This document shows, piece by piece, positions 23,257 to 47,828 of a DNA stretch of 64,000 bases (its first letter is position 1; every line of letters begins with the position of its first letter). The stretch covers positions 110,640-174,639 of the forward strand of contig CAZXAZ010000001.1 of NCBI GenBank assembly GCA_964638475.1. Reading direction: 5' to 3'. Source of the stretch: an uncultured Alistipes sp. (GTDB taxonomy: Bacteria > Bacteroidota > Bacteroidia > Bacteroidales > Muribaculaceae). A program made the position numbers and the translations under genes. The notes under the pieces are model-generated. The model had not been told where the DNA came from and did not search any database. It saw nothing but the letters and a program-made list of their open reading frames with translations.

Positions 23257-23274
23257 ATACCCAAAAATAGGTGT
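23257..23274. promoter_or_regulatory. Degenerate copy of palindromic operator ATACCTA-N4-TAGGTAT
   Basis: ATACCCAAAAATAGGTGT, 16/18 identical to 47592-47609; between divergent ychF (-7 at 23180-23187) and fumarase (-7 at 23307-23314) promoters. Confidence 0.5.
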
Positions 23275-38449: not shown

Positions 38450-39061
38450 TTATTGGGGGAGAATTTCGTAGGCGGTTGCTTGGATGTAGTAAGTTGAGAG
38501 GTAAGGCTTGCCTTCGAGGCTGTCGCGTTGAGCGATGCGTGAGCGATAGTCTGCCATTTGTGCTGCGAAGGTCTCAACATCAGCTTGTCCGGCAGCTTTG
38601 CGCTCTGTTTCGCAACCGGTGGGAGCGTTTTTGTAGTTTTCAGCTTCCTCTTGACCCTGTTGTTCGGCGATGCGTTCGATTTGTCCCTGACGGTTTTGTT
38701 CTAGCTCGCGGATAGCTTGTTCGTCAAGACGACTTTCCATAACAACACCGGTTACGCGAAGAGGCTGATGGATTGTTTCTTGAGGGAAAACGTTACCCAT
38801 TTCAGCAGTTGCATCACAGCGAATCATAGCGTTGTCGTCAGAGCCGAGAAGAAACGCTTTACGACCACCATGTTTGCATAGGTGAGAAACTACACCTTCG
38901 ATTGTCACAGTCTGACCGACGAATGCTTCAGGATTAGCGAGGATTGTGTCAACAGTGATGGCTTCAGCCTCGGCGGCTTCGTTTGCTGATTTGCTTGAAC
39001 AGCCGGTAGCAACGAATGCTATAATGGCTGTAATAGCCCAAAGAATAATGTTCTTGTTCAT
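38450..39061 (-). CDS. Lipoprotein with OB-fold-like N-domain and His/Cys motifs
   Basis: Lipobox VATGC; TVDTILANP..VGQTVTIEGVV pattern; SHLCKHG, IRCDA, GCETE. Confidence 0.75.
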   Translation of the reverse strand: MNKNIILWAITAIIAFVATGCSSKSANEAAEAEAITVDTILANPEAFVGQTVTIEGVVSHLCKHGGRKAFLLGSDDNAMIRCDATAEMGNVFPQETIHQPLRVTGVVMESRLDEQAIRELEQNRQGQIERIAEQQGQEEAENYKNAPTGCETERKAAGQADVETFAAQMADYRSRIAQRDSLEGKPYLSTYYIQATAYEILPQ

Positions 39062-39101: not shown

Positions 39102-40355
39102 TTAGTCGTTGAGTAAGAGGAAGGGAATAAATGAGAACACACCGAAAGACAGTGTAATAGCAGCGCCCAATTTCATAGTCGAATCTTTACGTCGAATGCC
39201 GATGATAAGCAGTGAAAGCGAGAGCAAAATGTTGAGCGGTAATGCATAAAATGACATATATATAACGCGTGGATAAGCGAGAGAGTCGTAGATAGAGGTG
39301 AACGTAAGGGCATAGGGAAATATATAGTTAGCCACCTCTGCTGCTGTTGATTTCTCGCGTATGAAGTCGAGAGAGCCGATAAGCTCAAGACTATCAGCGT
39401 CAAACGAGCGCCAACGAGTGCCTTCCGGCCCGGTAAATCTAAATGTCAAGTTAAATAGATTTCCCATCGCCATAATTGATTCTTTATAGGGATTTATACA
39501 GCCTGCTCCAACTGGAAGTTGTCGAGCGATATGCCCTTCTGTTTCGATGATATAAGGATGTCCGTCACTATCGATTACTAATCCGAGCAGAGCCCTGTTA
39601 GAGCCTTCCCAAATATATGATTTTTCAGCTTTAACACCGTCGGGTAGGGGAATTGCTACGACATATGGGCGTCCGCCTCGTTGTTTGACATGGAATAGTT
39701 TCCCTTTGGAATCAATCATTAAGTAACCTTCGTCATATTGCTTTTGGGCAGTAACGTTAGCCGAAAGGTCGGTAGCTGGGAAACAGAACCCACGAGATTT
39801 CATCGCGTCGGTAAACCTCCGAGAGCGCGTAGCGTTTACGCTGTTGTCGGCAATCTTTACGAATTCGATACCCTCGTTAGAGATACGGAAAGCTTCATCC
39901 GGGTCAGATAGGTCGACACGTACCGGCATAGATTCCATCATCATCCACATTCCGCTGTTTCGCTTGTTTGTTTCGCGAGGCGAGCAGTTAAAAAATAGTT
40001 CGTGAGTGCGGAGAGTATGAACCGTCGTCTCTTTTCCTAAGATAGAATCGGGAAGTTTGTCGTGAGCTGCAAGCTGACGATAGTATAGTTGAGGGGCGAG
40101 CGAGTCGCGCATTGCGATAGTAATTGTTTCACCGTTTAAAGCTTCTTCGGTGGAAGCGAAAGGTTGACAGATTGTGATATGAGTTTTCTCGCCGGGTTTT
40201 GAGCGGCTAACAATCCACTGACCGTTAAGAGGGGAGAGTGAGCAGAACGGGTCATTGCCTGCCGAAGGGGTCAACAAAGCATAGAGCCAGGGGAGAAACC
40301 AGCTCAAAACCGCGATAGCAACGGCGAATAATATGATTTTTGAAAACTTTGACAT
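39102..40355 (-). CDS. DUF4857-like inner-membrane protein
   Basis: N-terminal TM, about 330-aa soluble domain, two C-terminal TMs; start set at MSKFSK (40355; ORF track 40391). Confidence 0.72.
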   Translation of the reverse strand: MSKFSKIILFAVAIAVLSWFLPWLYALLTPSAGNDPFCSLSPLNGQWIVSRSKPGEKTHITICQPFASTEEALNGETITIAMRDSLAPQLYYRQLAAHDKLPDSILGKETTVHTLRTHELFFNCSPRETNKRNSGMWMMMESMPVRVDLSDPDEAFRISNEGIEFVKIADNSVNATRSRRFTDAMKSRGFCFPATDLSANVTAQKQYDEGYLMIDSKGKLFHVKQRGGRPYVVAIPLPDGVKAEKSYIWEGSNRALLGLVIDSDGHPYIIETEGHIARQLPVGAGCINPYKESIMAMGNLFNLTFRFTGPEGTRWRSFDADSLELIGSLDFIREKSTAAEVANYIFPYALTFTSIYDSLAYPRVIYMSFYALPLNILLSLSLLIIGIRRKDSTMKLGAAITLSFGVFSFIPFLLLND

Positions 40356-40383
40356 AATGAGATTGTTGCAAAGATTGAGAATA

Positions 40384-41055
40384 TTAATCAATTTGTCCCT
40401 GCCTAAAGCGGATGATCGACTGGTAGCTTAAAGTTGCGAGTAACAATGTTGCGATTATGGCAAACGGCAAATAGCCATTATATGCTCCCGGAACAGGTTG
40501 CAGGTAATAAAGTGTCGCAAAGCCGACTCCGATTAATGCGAGCAAAATTCGACGTTTCCATCGCCCTTCAAGACAAACGGCTGTAGCGAAGAAGTAAGCC
40601 GTATATCCGGCGATATACCAAGTCAACGAAGTCATTAGCACATGCCACGTCATTTCAGCCACAATTATCCCACTGTAGAAAATCCAAATTGAGACGAATT
40701 GAATTAGAAAAATCAACGTTAGTTCGGTGAACCCAGTTGCGAGCATCGTCATCAAGAGTTTCAACGATGAGCACGGAAGATGTAGCGTAAGTTTCAAACG
40801 ATTTTGTTGCATTTCGGGCATCATTTGCGACAAACCGATGAGTAGCCCGCAAAGCAACGGTATATATTTGATTGAATCGATAAAAGTCTGGTCTTTCATT
40901 AACATAATCAACCAGATATGTTCAACTCCGTGAGTTGTAATCACTCTATTGATTCCCAACATTGCATATACTGTGAAGAATAGCGCTAGGAGAAAGCAGA
41001 CCCAGAAAGCCCTGCGAGTTTTGAGTAATTCCTTTATGATTATAGCTTTTGTCAT
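40384..41055 (-). CDS. ABC-2-like permease (about 6 TM)
   Basis: KAIIIKELLKTR start, PEMQQNRLKLTLHLP coupling-helix-like motif; follows an ABC ATPase. Confidence 0.75.
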   Translation of the reverse strand: MTKAIIIKELLKTRRAFWVCFLLALFFTVYAMLGINRVITTHGVEHIWLIMLMKDQTFIDSIKYIPLLCGLLIGLSQMMPEMQQNRLKLTLHLPCSSLKLLMTMLATGFTELTLIFLIQFVSIWIFYSGIIVAEMTWHVLMTSLTWYIAGYTAYFFATAVCLEGRWKRRILLALIGVGFATLYYLQPVPGAYNGYLPFAIIATLLLATLSYQSIIRFRQGQID

Positions 41056-41081: not shown

Positions 41082-41978
41082 TTAGTAACGTCCGGTCAGT
41101 CCGATAAATGCATCCTCGAGAGAGTCAACGGCAAACGCCTCCAGAGAAGAAGCCTTAATCCCGGCATTCGAGAGTGTTGTTGCAACATGTTCGGGGGTGA
41201 AGAATGAGTAGAATTCAAACTTGTCGTTACTTTGCCATGGGCTGTAAATGCCTTCAATATCTGTTGGTATCATTCTCTGATCGTCGCAACAACGATATTC
41301 ATATCGTTTAAGATTGCTCATCAACTGTTTGACCGGTTGTTGTGTAAGAATCTTGCCGTAATCGAGAATGATGCAATCGTCAACCAGTCTTTCGAGATCT
41401 TGAATAATATGAGATGTCATAAAGACCGTTTTACCTTCAGATTTTACGAAATCGCGGAGATAGTCGACGAATAGTCTACGATATCCGGGGTCGAGACCCA
41501 AAGAGAAATCGTCAAGCACGAGCAAATCGGCGTTTTGTGCTAAAATCAAGCCTAACGCAACTTGTGATCGTTGGCCGTTAGACATTGATGATATCTTTTG
41601 TCCGGGTGAGACATGTAGCTTTTCCATCAAGCCGTAGTAGGCATCGCGATTCCATTTCGGATAGAATTGAGAATAAAATTTCTCAATCTGTGAGATAGTC
41701 ATAAAAGTGTATTGCACATGACCTTCAAGAAGCAACGCAATGCGGCGACGTGTTCTCGGCTTGAGTTTGGTTATATCCTCATCAAAAATGCGACATTCTC
41801 CGCCCTGAGGCTTAAGGAAGCCCATCAGAATGTTAATTGTTGTTGTCTTGCCGGTTCCGTTTTTGCCCAAAAGTCCGAGGATGCTTCCTTGGGGAACATC
41901 AAAACTCAGATTTTCGTAGATGAGTCTGCCACGCCCATAGCGTTGGGTCAGATTCTTTACAGATATTACGCTTTCCAT
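41082..41978 (-). CDS. ABC transporter ATP-binding protein (exporter-type, non-canonical Walker B)
   Basis: GKNGTGKTT, MSNGQ signature, LLVLDDFSLGLD, SHIIQD. Confidence 0.93.
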   Translation of the reverse strand: MESVISVKNLTQRYGRGRLIYENLSFDVPQGSILGLLGKNGTGKTTTINILMGFLKPQGGECRIFDEDITKLKPRTRRRIALLLEGHVQYTFMTISQIEKFYSQFYPKWNRDAYYGLMEKLHVSPGQKISSMSNGQRSQVALGLILAQNADLLVLDDFSLGLDPGYRRLFVDYLRDFVKSEGKTVFMTSHIIQDLERLVDDCIILDYGKILTQQPVKQLMSNLKRYEYRCCDDQRMIPTDIEGIYSPWQSNDKFEFYSFFTPEHVATTLSNAGIKASSLEAFAVDSLEDAFIGLTGRY

Positions 41979-42009: not shown

Positions 42010-43602
42010 TTAAATGTTGATACCAAACGAAAGTGAAGCATAATTAGCCGAGCCACATTTTTGCGAAAAATCGAGGCGTTGCCAGCTTCCTTTTATATAG
42101 AGAGAAGCAGAGTCAATAATGGGGAACTCTACTTTTGCCATTATCCTATATGTTGTAATGTTAGAAGTCATTACCGAACCATTGCGTTCAACCGCTTGAC
42201 CGATTGCTTCAGACAAATCTAGGCCATTTAGAGAGACTGTTTCGGGAGAGGTAAAACGGTGAGAGATATTGCAATTTATGGTCAAGAGAGCCCCTTTCGA
42301 GAAACGTCTTATCCAATCAATGCCGATCGAAGGCGTAAAATTGAGGGTAGATATTTTGCGGAAAGGTTCATTAATCTTTTCCGTTACAGAAAGATATTTG
42401 CCCCCGACAGCGAGACTCAGCCTATTTAAATGATCGATGCGCCATTCTATTGGTATGGTTAACTGAATATCGTAGATTGTTTTACGATAATTCTCGCGTT
42501 CTCCGATTTTAGGATAATTATTACCGGTAGACGAACCAAGCAGATTCTCTGTGCCGACTTTTTGGTTGTATTTGCCACATAATATAAATCCGTAGCTTAT
42601 ATTTGTCTCACTTTCCCTACCCAAAATCATGGCATATTCGCCACTAAAAGAAGTTGTTGAAGTATTGGTTAATTCGAGATTGTTGAAATCGCGCATATAT
42701 TGGCGCAATTTTATGTTTGAAAACTCAATCAATGAGCTAATCGGTGTTGTCGTTCTTGATTGAGGAAATAGAGAAGCCGAGATATTGAATCCCACTCCGG
42801 AATACGCCGTATTGCGTCCGCTGTTGCCGGAAAATCGAGGATAAAATGAGCCGAGTCCGGTCATGGCGTATGTCGGTATGTCATTCATTGGATTGTAGAA
42901 TTCGATGGCGGCAGTTTGATTGTAGACTCTTACATCGCCGGTTAGTCCAACTGCAAGACTCGAACGTGTCGGACGGAAACTACCTCCCAGCGCGATGTTA
43001 AGGTCTGATACAATTATTTTATCGCGAGGGTCGCGACCGCGATAATCTATTGATGCTCGATAAGAAGCCTCAACACCCCAACTCCAATGAGTCGATTCTC
43101 CCGCATAACCGCCACCAAAGTCATAGCTGCGTCGCGTTAAATCACCGCCAACGGGGTCTCCGATAACGTAAGGACCGACAAGATCGTAATCAGCAGAGTT
43201 GTTCCAAACAACATCTTTAATTGTTCCGGCATGAAATTGTGCATGCCCCCATACGGTTGTTGAGTTACCGATGTGACGATAAGATGAAGCATTAACACTG
43301 CCGACGAGTTCGCCCTTGCCAATTTCTGCCGGAAGAGTTTGCTCCGTTTCCGACAGAGAGCCTTGTAAGTAGAGTGAAGTAAAAGAGAATGGTAGGAATT
43401 CAGTCATAGCGGCAGGGCTTTTGGCTGACGCTAAGCGGCGAAATTGATAGTCGAGAGATTCCGTCGCCCACGATTTATCGATTGCCGTAGTCTGAGTCGT
43501 TTCGACAATAGTATCAGTCACACCGATGCCGGTAGCCCCGTTGACTGAGGCGACCGACATAAGTGTGGCTATTAAAGTGTATGTTGAGTTGTTGATAGAC
43601 AT
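42010..43602 (-). CDS. DUF6850-like outer-membrane beta-barrel protein
   Basis: Signal peptide, alternating beta-strand pattern, C-terminal SLSFGINI; start codon overlaps upstream stop by 1 nt. Confidence 0.75.
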   Translation of the reverse strand: MSINNSTYTLIATLMSVASVNGATGIGVTDTIVETTQTTAIDKSWATESLDYQFRRLASAKSPAAMTEFLPFSFTSLYLQGSLSETEQTLPAEIGKGELVGSVNASSYRHIGNSTTVWGHAQFHAGTIKDVVWNNSADYDLVGPYVIGDPVGGDLTRRSYDFGGGYAGESTHWSWGVEASYRASIDYRGRDPRDKIIVSDLNIALGGSFRPTRSSLAVGLTGDVRVYNQTAAIEFYNPMNDIPTYAMTGLGSFYPRFSGNSGRNTAYSGVGFNISASLFPQSRTTTPISSLIEFSNIKLRQYMRDFNNLELTNTSTTSFSGEYAMILGRESETNISYGFILCGKYNQKVGTENLLGSSTGNNYPKIGERENYRKTIYDIQLTIPIEWRIDHLNRLSLAVGGKYLSVTEKINEPFRKISTLNFTPSIGIDWIRRFSKGALLTINCNISHRFTSPETVSLNGLDLSEAIGQAVERNGSVMTSNITTYRIMAKVEFPIIDSASLYIKGSWQRLDFSQKCGSANYASLSFGINI

Positions 43603-44837
43603 TAATGAGTTGATTTCAGTAGGAAGTCAGCTGCAGAATCGTCAGAATCTTGAAGTATTACACGACCGTCGGGGGTAGTAGTAGCTGTTTTGCGAACGAA
43701 TACTTTGCCGAAACGTTGGGGATCTGAATTCTTTTCAGAGATGCAAGCGAATGAAGCATCTATAGAGGGCGCAAGCGCACCATGAACAAATGTTTCGAGG
43801 TTGCCGAGGTTGACACCGTCTATAATCCAGCTGTTGGGAATACGACAAGCATTTTGCTTGGTCATTTCCATACCTGTTGCGGGGTGGATATATTTGTAAG
43901 AGCCTTTGTATTCAGCGAGATAGCTTTCTACATTCATTCCTTCGGGCATCTTCACCAAAGCGTATGAACGGTTACATTGGTTTGATATAATCCAGATAGA
44001 GTTAGAATAGCTAAACCATTTTTCGAGGTTGGGAACCGAAGGGTTGTCTGTATCCATCGCATGGTCGTCATACCATTCGAAGTCGGCATCTGTCAGATTA
44101 AGAGCCCCTTCAACTTCAGCGCTCCAATCGATAGCTTGGTCAACGATGGTAATGTATTCTCCCGGTTCAACAGCAACATCTTTTCCGCTTCCTGGGATAA
44201 CCCAAACGGTGCCGGCTGTAAAGTTGACGTTGAGGTCGTTTTCGGGCGTGAGAATAGTGTAGTCGTTAGTGCGAGAGTTAACGAAGTCTGATTCACATAT
44301 AGCAAGGCCGTCGGCATATAGGGTTTCGGCTGAGTTGTTATAGATACGGATATATGTGTCTTTCAGCCCATTCTTACCGGTAGCGTTAGGCGAACCGGCA
44401 GCGAAGATTTCGCTGATAACGAAGCCTTCAGAGGGAGTTGACTTAAACCAATTGAGAGTCAAACTTTGAGCCCCGGTGATTGTAACCGAATTGCCGATAG
44501 AGCGAAGTAAGAGCGATTTTTCAGAGCCGTCAGAAAGGGTAGTTGAGTAGTTGATTTCACCGGCGTAGTCATAGATGCCGACCGGCAAGGTTACCGATTC
44601 AACGGCGTTATTGTCGTCAGCGTCAGATGGGAATGAGTAAGTAACACGAGTATTGAGCTCGGTGAAAGAGATTGACGAGTTAATAAACTCAGCATCTTCG
44701 GCATCGAAATCTTCGGGAAAATTGTTGTCGAGAGCGATAGTGAATTTCTGTTCCTCCGGAGTGTCGTTGTCGTCGGAGCAAGAGGAGAATCCTGCGCATA
44801 GAGAAATCGTGGCGAGGATAAAAGCAAACTTTTTCAT
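43602..44837 (-). CDS. DUF4876-like surface lipoprotein
   Basis: Lipobox FSSC + acidic SDDND; FVISEIF..DTYIRIYNN..LYADGLAI (lamin-tail-like) motif. Confidence 0.78.
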   Translation of the reverse strand: MKKFAFILATISLCAGFSSCSDDNDTPEEQKFTIALDNNFPEDFDAEDAEFINSSISFTELNTRVTYSFPSDADDNNAVESVTLPVGIYDYAGEINYSTTLSDGSEKSLLLRSIGNSVTITGAQSLTLNWFKSTPSEGFVISEIFAAGSPNATGKNGLKDTYIRIYNNSAETLYADGLAICESDFVNSRTNDYTILTPENDLNVNFTAGTVWVIPGSGKDVAVEPGEYITIVDQAIDWSAEVEGALNLTDADFEWYDDHAMDTDNPSVPNLEKWFSYSNSIWIISNQCNRSYALVKMPEGMNVESYLAEYKGSYKYIHPATGMEMTKQNACRIPNSWIIDGVNLGNLETFVHGALAPSIDASFACISEKNSDPQRFGKVFVRKTATTTPDGRVILQDSDDSAADFLLKSTH

Positions 44838-44883: not shown

Positions 44884-47511
44884 TTATAGTTTGAAATTCA
44901 TTTCCATTCCGAAATAAGGAGATGTATAGCGGCGTTGGATAGTGCCATACAACTCATAGTCGGGAGTGATGCTTATCAGTCGGTTGACATATAAGGCAAC
45001 ACCAATTCTGTCGTTCCAAAGTTTCTTGGTAGCTTTGATATTAAACGAAGTGGCTATAGGAATACGACGTTCGTCAAAGGCGCTTTTCGAGTAGTCTCGC
45101 AGCAACTGACCCAGGTAAGGATCAGAGGTGTCAGTTGGGTTCCATTTATGTTCAACACCATCGAGTCCGACATATTTAGTCGGCATTCCCGCTTTTGGCA
45201 GCGTTTGATTAGTTGTGAACCACATATTCTGCACCGACATCGAAATATTTAACTTCAAGCGAGGAATATCAGTGTCAAACGTAAAGTTGGTATTGAAAGA
45301 TTGGTAGACTGTGCCTTCATTGTCGTTATAGTATCCGGCATAGGGGAGTTCTTTGCCATTGACGATAATCGAAGGCTTATACCAAAGACCGGTTGAATTT
45401 GCCATAGTTGTTTTAAACCATGCTCCATTAACCGTTACACGAGTACGAACAATTGGGAAACGTCGAGAAGAGAAAGTAAATTCAACACCCTCTTTGTCGA
45501 TGCGCGACGAATTCGTCGGACGGCTGACCATAGCAATTTTGCTTTCGGTTGTGAAAGGCAGATTGTCAATCTTCGGAGCGCCGTTAATTATCGGGTCATA
45601 AGATGAAGCATCGTATCGGTTGTAGGTGTGGTAACGTACCTCTGATGCCATGCGGAATGCGTCATTCATATTCTCGCGGAAATATGTGACCGAAAGACGA
45701 TTACCCTTATACGAAATGTCACCGCAAACTTCCCATTTTAAGTTACGAGCAGCTTTGATGTCATAGTTGACACGGTCGTCGACGAAGGTCATTACATTCA
45801 TCGTGCGCCATTGCTCATTATCGTGGAAATAGTTAAGCTGCACTTCATCGGTATAAATCATATCGGGATAAAGATATGCAGCAACCGGCATCTTCGTGTG
45901 TAGTCCGGCACCTCCACTTAATGCAAAGATAATCGGTTCGTTATCAACCGATAGATAGGGGAGAGTCCATTTCAGGTTGGCTCGCGGGTCGAAATATGGG
46001 CGACCTGAGAGGTAATATCTACCATCAAGATTGAGCAGCTGCGTTTCGCGAAGACCAATTTGTAGATGCAGAGTATGGTTGCCAAATCTCGCTTCTGACT
46101 CATTCTCGATATAAACCGATAATTGTTGCATAGCCGGAATATCGTTGAACGGGCGCGGACGCGAGTTATTGCCGGCTGTGAGCGGGCGAGTCAAATCGTA
46201 TACCTGCCCTTTACCGAAGTTTTTCGACAAAATCCACTCTGCTCCCGCTTTTAGCCTTCCGGAAAAATTTGAATGACGGTAGCGTAAATTCGATGACAGT
46301 TTTATGAACGTTGAGAAAGGCTTTCCATAGACATCATAGTCTGCGGTATATAGCATCGGGAGATATCCTACATAATTTGAGCCGGGAGTAGTTGAAACCG
46401 GCATTGGGTAGAGACGAGTTGATCCGACGCTTTTTTGTTGGCGTAAACGCTCGTCAGAGTACCTTATGCCGGTTGTTAATCCGAGATTGTTGAAGAAACC
46501 GCTTCGACGTGATACGATAACAAGAGTGTTATTCCAACAAAAATTATTGACATCGTTGGTATAATAATCAATCGTATTATTAACCGTCAAGTCTGGATCG
46601 TTTTTGTCGCGCTCAAAAGTGCCGGTGTAGTTGAGTGAAGTATCCCATGTAAGGTCATTTCCCCAAACAGTGCTTTTAAGGTTGCTACGGAGCGAGAAGG
46701 TTGCGCGTTTATAGTTTTGGCGATTGTCGCGCGGGTCTATACGAGAGTCGAGATAGTCAGCCGAAAGGTTAATAGTCCACCAGTCTCGAGCAGGCATATT
46801 AAACCCTTTTGCAATATGGAAAAGTTGGCTCTGCATATCAGCTTTGAAACGAGCATCAAGACCGGTCGCCCCATTCTTGCGCTTGATTTTTACAAGTCCC
46901 GAAGTCAGTTCGCCATACTCAACTGATGGTATTCCTCTGACGATTTCAACGCTTTCGATATCGTCTGTCGCAATAGATCGCATATCAACTCCTTTACCGG
47001 TCGTCAGTCGTCCGCTGCGCTCCGAGTCGGGGGTAGATTGCATCGCTGCGGAAGTGTTCACCGGAACACCGTCTATAACGAATGACGTGCCTAACGACGA
47101 TGTGTCATATCCATCAGGAGCGGCTTGTGGCGCTTGGCGCAAGTTGATAAGGTTTGCCTTCCCCATGTCGGGGTCTTTCGATACGAATCCGGGCAACAAT
47201 TCAACGAGGTCTGTAAAACTCGATGGTTGAAGATGAGCCATCGCTTGACGATTGATAAGCGATGCCGAAGTAACGCCACGGCTCTCGCGAGCTGTTACAA
47301 CAACTTCACCTAATTCTTTCCCGAGCATTTCTTGTTCGCGACGGTCGAGGTCGGCGAGTAACATCGAATCAATTCGGGCGATAGCGTCAAGCGAATCTTT
47401 TTTGAGAGAAGACACGGTCACTTGGGCATTGTTCTCCTTAACCGAAGATAACATTGCCGAAACGTTTGTCAATAACAACAGCGATATGACCGAAATTTTT
47501 GTAGAACTCAC
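44884..47511 (-). CDS. TonB-dependent receptor
   Basis: GTG start; TonB-box-like LGEVVVTA; plug motifs IDGVP, DIESVEIVRG, YGELTSGLV; C-terminal FGMEMNFKL. Confidence 0.93.
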   Translation of the reverse strand: MSSTKISVISLLLLTNVSAMLSSVKENNAQVTVSSLKKDSLDAIARIDSMLLADLDRREQEMLGKELGEVVVTARESRGVTSASLINRQAMAHLQPSSFTDLVELLPGFVSKDPDMGKANLINLRQAPQAAPDGYDTSSLGTSFVIDGVPVNTSAAMQSTPDSERSGRLTTGKGVDMRSIATDDIESVEIVRGIPSVEYGELTSGLVKIKRKNGATGLDARFKADMQSQLFHIAKGFNMPARDWWTINLSADYLDSRIDPRDNRQNYKRATFSLRSNLKSTVWGNDLTWDTSLNYTGTFERDKNDPDLTVNNTIDYYTNDVNNFCWNNTLVIVSRRSGFFNNLGLTTGIRYSDERLRQQKSVGSTRLYPMPVSTTPGSNYVGYLPMLYTADYDVYGKPFSTFIKLSSNLRYRHSNFSGRLKAGAEWILSKNFGKGQVYDLTRPLTAGNNSRPRPFNDIPAMQQLSVYIENESEARFGNHTLHLQIGLRETQLLNLDGRYYLSGRPYFDPRANLKWTLPYLSVDNEPIIFALSGGAGLHTKMPVAAYLYPDMIYTDEVQLNYFHDNEQWRTMNVMTFVDDRVNYDIKAARNLKWEVCGDISYKGNRLSVTYFRENMNDAFRMASEVRYHTYNRYDASSYDPIINGAPKIDNLPFTTESKIAMVSRPTNSSRIDKEGVEFTFSSRRFPIVRTRVTVNGAWFKTTMANSTGLWYKPSIIVNGKELPYAGYYNDNEGTVYQSFNTNFTFDTDIPRLKLNISMSVQNMWFTTNQTLPKAGMPTKYVGLDGVEHKWNPTDTSDPYLGQLLRDYSKSAFDERRIPIATSFNIKATKKLWNDRIGVALYVNRLISITPDYELYGTIQRRYTSPYFGMEMNFKL

Positions 47512-47591: not shown

Positions 47592-47609
47592 ATACCTAAA
47601 AATAGGTAT
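47592..47609. promoter_or_regulatory. Palindromic operator copy 1 (ATACCTA-AAAA-TAGGTAT)
   Basis: Perfect 7-4-7 inverted repeat upstream of the receptor promoter. Confidence 0.7.
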
Positions 47610-47656
47610 CGCGAATCTTTAATATTACTCAATCTGTATATCGTCCGTTATGTATG

Positions 47657-47676
47657 AATACCTAATGTTAGGTATT
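47657..47676. promoter_or_regulatory. Palindromic operator copy 2 (AATACCTAA-TG-TTAGGTATT)
   Basis: Same 7-4-7 core, 66 bp from copy 1. Confidence 0.7.
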
Positions 47677-47774
47677 GCAGAAGTCTGCTTTTCTGTTCAG
47701 AGTATATTTTTCTGTATATCCCCGCCCGTGAGCGAGGGGGCTGTGCTTCTCTGATGTAATGTTTTCCCAAAAAA

Positions 47775-47811
47775 AATCAGGCGATATGTCGCTGTGACAT
47801 ATCGCCTGATT
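47775..47811 (-). terminator. Terminator ending the three-lipoprotein operon
   Basis: Perfect 16-bp stem AATCAGGCGATATGTC/GACATATCGCCTGATT followed by a T-run on the minus strand. Confidence 0.88.
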
Positions 47812-47828
47812 ATTGAGTTAGTATTGGA

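Follow-up and report, generated by a model that had tools for sequence, protein, structure and literature searches.

The question raised by this locus is which factor recognises two perfect palindromes in front of a TonB-dependent receptor operon of an uncultured Muribaculaceae species, and in which direction it acts on that operon. The original prediction, made on the 64,000-nt stretch of DNA that is referred to here as the window, had described two 7-4-7 palindromes (ATACCTA-N4-TAGGTAT) located 50-135 bp upstream of a -7 element and had proposed them as an operator for an unassigned regulator. Both were found exactly as described, 66 bp apart from start to start: the proximal box P (ATACCTAAAAATAGGTAT) at 47592-47609 and the distal box D (ATACCTAATGTTAGGTAT) at 47658-47675, with no strand assigned to either. 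The Bacteroidota-type -7 box TAAATTTG is located on the minus strand at 47542-47535, and the transcription start is predicted a few nucleotides downstream of it. Counted upstream from the -7 box, box P ends at a distance of 49 nt and box D at 115 nt, in agreement with the range originally given, and the centre of box D lies approximately 124 nt upstream.

Both boxes are located in the 317 nt that separate the upstream gene's terminator from the minus-strand open reading frame of the receptor. Within this gap, TAAATTTG is the sole exact match to TAnnTTTG, and no -33 TTTG was found for the promoter when the 317 nt were read; neither is a -7 box hidden 22 nt downstream of box D or box P in the window. 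The terminator-like hairpin with its T-run at 47777-47812 (minus strand) forms the end of the upstream lipoprotein operon and shields the boxes from read-through. A G+C-rich imperfect hairpin (CCCCGCCCGTGAGCGAGGGGG, 47721-47741), which is unique in the genome, was observed between this terminator and box D. Between box P and the -7 box, ATAACCAAT occurs in two direct copies on the minus strand (47572-47564 and 47560-47552), and a single block of it is kept in the same-genus relatives L037, L043 and L044. Owing to the extra copy, a 12-nt tandem duplication, the spacer between box P and the -7 box is 12 nt longer here.

At up to two mismatches, the window holds three matches to the motif as opposed to 0.11 expected, and none of 100 shuffles gave three. 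In a genome-wide scan, which had been suggested together with the original prediction, the 2.17-Mb assembly (97.6% complete) contained no perfect copies other than D and P, whereas copies with two mismatches were no commoner than the control (nine matches as opposed to 11 with the reversed pattern), so that only near-perfect copies are meaningful. The third copy in the window, ATACCCAAAAATAGGTGT at 23257-23274, agrees in 16 of 18 positions and lies before a class I fumarase gene, 32 nt from a -7 box. It was rejected as a regulon member, as its 16.6 bits lie below the best reversed-genome control of 19.1 bits and nothing similar was found upstream of fumarase in the five closest relatives; it is probably a chance match. 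A two-mismatch match at C4:82012 was rejected as a site because of its location inside a coding region.

The operon downstream of the boxes comprises seven genes, all on the minus strand. The first encodes the TonB-dependent receptor (44884-47511), a protein of 875 aa with a GTG start at 47511, a signal-peptide-like N-terminus and a Pfam Plug domain. It is followed by the genes for a DUF4876 surface lipoprotein (43602-44837), a DUF6850 barrel (42010-43602), an ABC ATPase (41082-41978), an ABC-2 permease (40384-41055), a DUF4857 protein (39102-40391) and, in last place, a 203-aa ORF (38450-39061). Judged by domain content, none of the seven genes encodes a regulator, as had been stated. DUF4876 proteins have been proposed to be the lids of non-SusC TonB-dependent transporters (bioRxiv 10.1101/2023.03.17.533168). 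The ABC ATPase is closest to exporter-type (DrrA/PmtA-like) ATPases and has the ABC-2 permease as its partner, which is odd for an uptake operon. The gene content of the operon matches that of BT3625-33 from Bacteroides thetaiotaomicron, and the core of DUF4876 protein and receptor is shared with PG1019-22 from Porphyromonas gingivalis (loci according to PMC10434189). These two loci are among those most strongly induced by iron starvation, with 37-128-fold induction of BT3625-33 and 20-215-fold induction of PG1019-22 upon iron depletion, and the regulatory mechanism is described by the authors as poorly known (PMC10434189). By its gene content, the operon in the window is the orthologue of a CdhR-dependent, iron-starvation-induced operon, the dependence being that reported in the literature for P. 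gingivalis and the induction that reported for P. gingivalis and B. thetaiotaomicron.

Conservation, promoter spacing and helical phasing

Receptor orthologues adjoin DUF4876 genes in 14 of the 41 relatives searched (this genome included), all of them belonging to the same genus. In addition, 80 orthologous loci were fetched from public genomes. The box search covered 68 loci and used a position weight matrix derived from the sites of the genus, with a cut-off of at least 13 bits. This phylogenetic footprinting, also proposed as a check on the original prediction, revealed that the box is kept upstream of orthologous receptors, with a box above the cut-off in 40 of the 68 loci. The box-bearing loci are distributed across the Muribaculaceae, including Duncaniella muris, and are also found in Prevotella sp. 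oral taxon 376, Segatella and Odoribacter laneus. The consensus reads WTACC(T/A)A-N4-T(A/G)GGTATT, the promoter-side arm being the most conserved part, and many of the orthologous boxes are imperfect or consist of the promoter-side arm alone. Distal boxes are present at matching positions in the orthologous promoters.

In 22 of 47 boxes, the spacer from the last T to TAnnTTTG measures exactly 22 nt, and its letters are not conserved. In the Bacteroides promoter model, the -7 box spans -10 to -3, and if this is adopted, the centre of a box at 22-nt spacing falls near -41.5. The 22-nt box occupies the position of a class II activator, in place of the absent -33 element. In class II activation by regulators of the LuxR/TraR and CRP/FNR types, the site is centred at about -41.5 to -42.5, and in most relatives the box likewise covers part of the -35-equivalent region, its distance from the core promoter element being fixed. 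The locus described here differs from these systems in having a Bacteroidota -33/-7 promoter, a site approximately 1.5-2.5 helical turns further upstream in the window, and a second, phased site. The distance from the P-equivalent box to the -7 box is 22 nt in most other Muribaculaceae, 37-38 nt in the same-genus relatives and 49 nt here. The spacing of the window and the genus (37-49 nt) deviates by 1.5 helical turns from the class II-like position, which makes the recruitment geometry at this promoter less certain. A scan of this genome for GTAT-N21-23-TAnnTTTG gave 14 matches that do not form a coherent regulon, because this genus uses another spacing.

Outside the genus, the spacing can be used as a search pattern. 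TAC-N10-GTAT-N22-TAnnTTTG gave about 170 matches in 121 Muribaculaceae genomes as opposed to about 22 with the reversed control. In a set of 151 Bacteroidales genomes from 148 families, the pattern was found in 79 genomes, with about 140 matches as opposed to about 50 in the control after one genome with a repeated element had been set aside; many of the matches are perfect TACCTA-N4-TAGGTA boxes. In the genome set aside (G255, from another Bacteroidales family; 28 places), an identical 47-nt stretch including a -7 box is repeated about 26 times. It resembles a promoter carried on a mobile or repeated element, and it raised the pattern count of that genome.

Where a distal and a proximal box are paired, their centre-to-centre distances are 43-44, 54-56, 64-66, 76 and 87 bp and increase in steps of approximately 11 bp. 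The vector strength of these distances amounts to 0.92-0.93 at a period of 10.5-11 bp, for a set that consists of the receptor promoters of several genera and one small-RNA promoter. The spacing of 66 bp in the window corresponds to six helical turns. Since insertions and deletions have repeatedly shifted the boxes by whole turns, the phasing argues for two protein dimers that would be bound on one face of the helix.

These regularities bear on the question of whether, instead of protein sites, the palindromes could be copies of a small repeated element or RNA or DNA hairpins that serve weak termination, processing or attenuation. Each palindrome does fold into an 8-bp stem with about -8 kcal/mol and a z-score of about -5, the proximal one is followed by TTTT, and both arms sometimes change together in relatives, for example to ATACTCA...TGAGTAT. 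However, the stems are A+T-rich, unlike those of an intrinsic terminator or a structured RNA, and the boxes are probably untranscribed, because they are located upstream of the sole -7 box and downstream of a strong terminator. Moreover, orthologous copies are often imperfect or mere half-sites, and neither the fixed 22-nt promoter spacing nor the 11-bp phasing has an explanation at the RNA level. A dispersed repeat of the REP or MITE kind does not fit either, since in 2.17 Mb only two copies are perfect and three matches exceed the control maximum. Hairpins or repeats are consequently regarded as highly improbable, and the reading as protein-binding sites, already favoured in the original prediction, is corroborated by the conservation upstream of orthologues, the fixed spacing to the -7 box and the helical phase of paired boxes.

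The box among known regulator sites and its candidate regulator

Palindromic boxes that control iron uptake genes are also known for Fur, DtxR/IdeR and Irr. The Fur box is an AT-rich 7-1-7 or 9-1-9 (19 bp) palindrome, GATAATGATAATCATTATC, whereas both boxes in the window have ATACCTA arms and a 4-nt centre and lack a GATAAT core. The DtxR/IdeR box TWAGGTWAGSCTWACCTWA carries TAGGT in its 5' arm, ACCTA in its 3' arm and a 1-nt centre, whereas the order of the arms is reversed here (ACCTA...TAGGT) and the centre measures 4 nt. The ICE box of Irr has a 7-3-7 structure with TTTAGAA. Fur, DtxR/IdeR and Irr repress when metal or haem is bound, in contrast to the system described here, which appears to activate at low iron. 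The differences in arm letters, arm order and centre agree with the earlier view that the motif is neither a Fur nor a DtxR box, and its separation from Rex and NrdR boxes was upheld as well. The half-sites of CRP and FNR are TGTGA-N6-TCACA and TTGAT-N4-ATCAA, centred at -41.5. For these class II regulators, the position fits in the relatives and Crp-family proteins are present, but the half-site letters do not fit the known consensus; another specificity within the Crp family is possible.

The sites of NarL and NarP consist of inverted heptamers with a specified span of 16 bases, to which a dimeric GerE helix-turn-helix (HTH) binds, and the box is built likewise, with the same kind of binding proposed here. 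The generally given heptamer consensus of NarL is TACYYMT, in the 7-2-7 arrangement TACYYMT-NN-AKRRGTA. The half-site TACCTA fits this consensus, and boxes can be read in the 7-2-7 form as TACCTAT-TT-TTAGGTA and TACCTAA-CA-TTAGGTA; the column counts of the aligned boxes give TACC(T/A)A ... T(A/G)(G/A)GTA.

A regulator next to the operon was not found: when all ORFs up to 5 kb upstream of the 68 orthologous loci were clustered, no conserved neighbouring transcription factor appeared. Two box-preceded genes in other genomes (L136 and L160), however, encode proteins of 316-320 aa with a hemerythrin domain and a GerE/LuxR HTH. This genome has one orthologue, a 337-aa protein with PF01814 and PF00196 encoded on another contig (G000:C27:16446-17459), which is the sole GerE-domain protein found in the 97.6%-complete assembly; its gene lies among housekeeping genes and is not itself preceded by a box. 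The genome also encodes two proteins of the Fur family and two of the Crp/Fnr family (HTH_Crp_2). In an alignment of 26 orthologous sequences, the residues H88, H133, E137, H166, H209 and E213 are invariant, and they were conserved to 100% in a separate run with 30 sequences. These six His and Glu residues correspond to the ligand pattern of the di-iron site of Escherichia coli YtfE. A comparison of the sensor domain with the PDB by sequence alone gave only a weak YtfE match (E about 0.1), and the placement needed a comparison of folds. The AlphaFold model of the protein has a pLDDT of 86, and its first 235 residues match YtfE (5fny, 5fnn) and ScdA of Staphylococcus aureus (9j47, TM 0.77). The C-terminal domain of the model superimposes on the DNA-binding domains of LiaR, VraR and NarL with an rmsd of 1.1-1.5 Å, and sequence matches to these domains were also found. 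NarL, LiaR and VraR have a phosphorylatable receiver and a kinase, whereas the 337-aa protein has neither and carries a di-iron domain as its input; their regulons serve nitrate respiration or cell-envelope stress, in contrast to the iron uptake genes behind the box.

Box and regulator gene are connected at several loci. Either fused or split into two adjacent genes, hemerythrin-LuxR is present in 113 of 121 Muribaculaceae genomes and in 92 of the 151 Bacteroidales genomes (148 families). The exact pattern adjoins the regulator gene in 13 genomes, nine times directly upstream on the same strand and four times divergently, as opposed to about 0.03 expected by chance, and it was likewise seen before a split hemerythrin gene of another family (L204). 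A box before the regulator gene places this gene in the regulon but does not show that the gene product is what binds there. Among the 151 Bacteroidales genomes from 148 families, the association between pattern and sensor is moderate, with an odds ratio of 2.5-3.8 and p values of 0.002-0.008, and seven of these genomes have good boxes and no sensor match at an E-value of 1e-8.

A second, related class of boxes, given as TACCAnAnnTGTGGTATT or TACCAnAnnTGTGGTA, precedes cysK, likewise with 22-nt spacing. A gene for a 215-aa protein with a pseudo-receiver and a GerE domain follows cysK in four of the five cysK loci, so that GerE factors and TACC-N8-GGTA boxes go together in Bacteroidales. The cysK-linked GerE protein may be a paralogous LuxR-type activator for sulphur metabolism. 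In these other Bacteroidales genomes (L148:1124-1771, L165:866-1519, L134, L203), the TACCAnAnnTGTGGTATT class was observed 22 nt before the -7 box not only of cysK but also of an O-acetylhomoserine sulfhydrylase gene and a pstB-like gene.

The closest described counterpart is found in P. gingivalis, where the hemerythrin-like PG1236 and the LuxR-family regulator PG1237/CdhR are co-transcribed and deletion of either cdhR or PG1236 lowers the expression of PG1019, hmuYR and PG1178-81 (PMC11018363). These mutant effects could be indirect. Iron depletion also induces the hemerythrin-CdhR pair itself, with 7-fold induction in P. gingivalis as compared with 16-20-fold in B. thetaiotaomicron; in Prevotella intermedia, the pair occurs as a fusion (PIN17_RS10465) (PMC10434189). 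The 337-aa protein shares its two modules, the RIC/hemerythrin di-iron domain and the GerE HTH, with PG1236 and PG1237/CdhR, with BT0519-BT0520 and with PIN17_RS10465, and the target operon of PG1236/CdhR (DUF4876 protein and TonB receptor, PG1019-22) is of the same type as that in the window. It differs from CdhR, which contains a pseudo-receiver domain, in that the sensor is fused straight to the HTH with no pseudo-receiver in between. That CdhR binds the hmuY promoter was not reproduced in one study (PMC11018363), and both the mechanism of DNA binding and the binding of iron by CdhR are still to be defined according to the authors (PMC11018363; PMC10434189). No DNA motif for CdhR was found in the literature searched, which included these two papers; older work on CdhR may hold a partial site.

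Taken as a whole, these data make it probable that the boxes are sites of a CdhR-type dimeric LuxR/NarL factor, composed of a di-iron sensor and a GerE HTH, that activates the iron-uptake operon. We infer that the 337-aa protein binds this box, that it is active in its apo form and that its effect comes about through recruitment. Regulators of the Fur, DtxR and Rrf2 families, which had been put forward as possible binders, are probably the wrong ones, and the best candidate is the single LuxR/GerE protein of the genome with its RIC/hemerythrin di-iron sensor.

The boxes could instead be bound by another dimeric factor, such as either of the two Crp/Fnr-family proteins or either of the two from the Fur family, with the hemerythrin-LuxR gene as a mere member of the regulon. 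The class II layout of Crp/Fnr regulators also consists of a 16-18-bp palindrome near -41.5, the box can be read as TACCT-N6-AGGTA, and two HTH_Crp_2 and two FUR proteins are available in the genome. Furthermore, the iron regulation of the hemerythrin-CdhR operon could be explained by any master regulator, and the association of pattern and sensor across families is no more than moderate. Against this, the box is unlike the Fur (7-1-7), FNR and CRP half-sites in their generally given consensus and fits heptamers of the NarL type, the hemerythrin fusion is the sole protein of the genome with a GerE domain, and the class TACCAnAnnTGTGGTA before cysK operons with a GerE gene of their own (four of five loci) ties GerE factors to such boxes. 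Together with the lowered expression of the orthologous operon after loss of CdhR or PG1236 in P. gingivalis (PMC11018363), these points make a different binding factor unlikely.

The direction of control was weighed separately. The term operator used in the original prediction stands insofar as the boxes are sites of a regulator, whereas its sense of repression is probably wrong, as both the geometry and the genetics of P. gingivalis point to an activator. It is conceivable that hemerythrin-LuxR binds the boxes but functions in this genus as an iron-replete repressor or anti-activator, with phased dimers that loop or occlude the promoter and whose release induces the operon. The distance of the proximal box from the -7 box in the genus, 37-49 nt and not the class II-like 22 nt, would be in line with this, a phased pair of sites 66 bp apart is typical of looping repressors, and the pair had originally been called an operator. 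However, D and P are located entirely upstream of both the -7 box and any -33 position, help is probably needed at this promoter because it has no -33 TTTG, and a spacing kept strictly at 22 nt, as seen elsewhere, is characteristic of activators. In addition, mutants in cdhR and PG1236 lose rather than gain expression of the orthologous operon (PMC11018363). Repression by the same protein is therefore considered quite improbable, less so than hairpins or repeats, and activation by the hemerythrin-LuxR protein is retained as the preferred explanation.

For the promoter in the window, the following course of events is proposed. If iron is scarce or nitric oxide damages the centre, the di-iron site would be empty and the 337-aa protein would become active. 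Two dimers would then bind cooperatively at D and P, separated by six helical turns and thus on one face of the DNA, and would recruit RNA polymerase to a promoter with a -7 box and no -33 TTTG. This recruitment would switch on the operon of receptor, DUF4876, DUF6850 and ABC genes.

Extent of the regulon and iron sensing in Bacteroidales

In other genomes, the genes downstream of the box include feoA-feoB fusions, TonB receptors, a porin followed by an imelysin, and a lipoprotein flavodoxin, and further RND efflux parts, secreted proteins of unknown function and the hemerythrin-LuxR gene. The set is as would be expected for an iron-starvation regulon. In this genome, no box was found upstream of feoAB. 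The porin-imelysin operon has a weaker box (ATAATCAAAAGTGAGTAT, G000:C35:3650-3667) located 41 nt before TATTTTTG, and the same operon in another Muribaculaceae genome (L152) has a strong box at 22 nt.

Besides D and P, one match in the genome lies above the control maximum, namely ATACTTAAAATTAAGTAT at G000:C9:87777. It is the distal box of a promoter that is kept in four close relatives (G000:C9:87777-88050; locus L007:1511-1775) and in which a proximal half-site (..TTGTAGGTAA) is located exactly 38 nt before the -7 box TACCTTTG. The -7 box is followed by a non-coding stretch of about 120 nt with a terminator at its end, for which Rfam gave only a weak match to the Bacteroides sRNA BTnc231 (E 0.02). 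This stretch looks like a candidate iron-starvation small RNA of the same regulon.

The box, the spacing rules and the spread across the order are new from this analysis, while the system itself has already been described in part. For the window itself, the gain is modest, as it adds the orthologous promoter from an uncultured Muribaculaceae species to a system already described in part. With regard to the order as a whole, we tentatively suggest, at a confidence falling somewhat short of even, that iron acquisition in Bacteroidales is mainly under the control of a Fur-independent one- or two-component activator with a RIC/YtfE-type di-iron sensor. Its apo form, resulting from iron starvation or damage by nitric oxide, would bind TACCTA-N4-TAGGTA boxes at a fixed promoter position and in phased pairs, and would switch on feoAB, TonB receptors, porin-imelysin, flavodoxin and at least one small RNA. 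If this were true, the small RNA could play an iron-sparing role similar to that of RyhB, and the window would contain one of the cleanest two-site promoters of the regulon.

Iron sensing in Bacteroidales is an admitted gap, and the box would provide the CdhR-type regulator with its missing DNA motif and geometry. A defined box, together with the 22-nt spacing and the 11-bp phasing, would allow the regulon to be predicted in any Bacteroidales genome. This is of relevance for gut commensals that compete for iron in inflammation as well as for oral pathogens with CdhR-dependent haem uptake.
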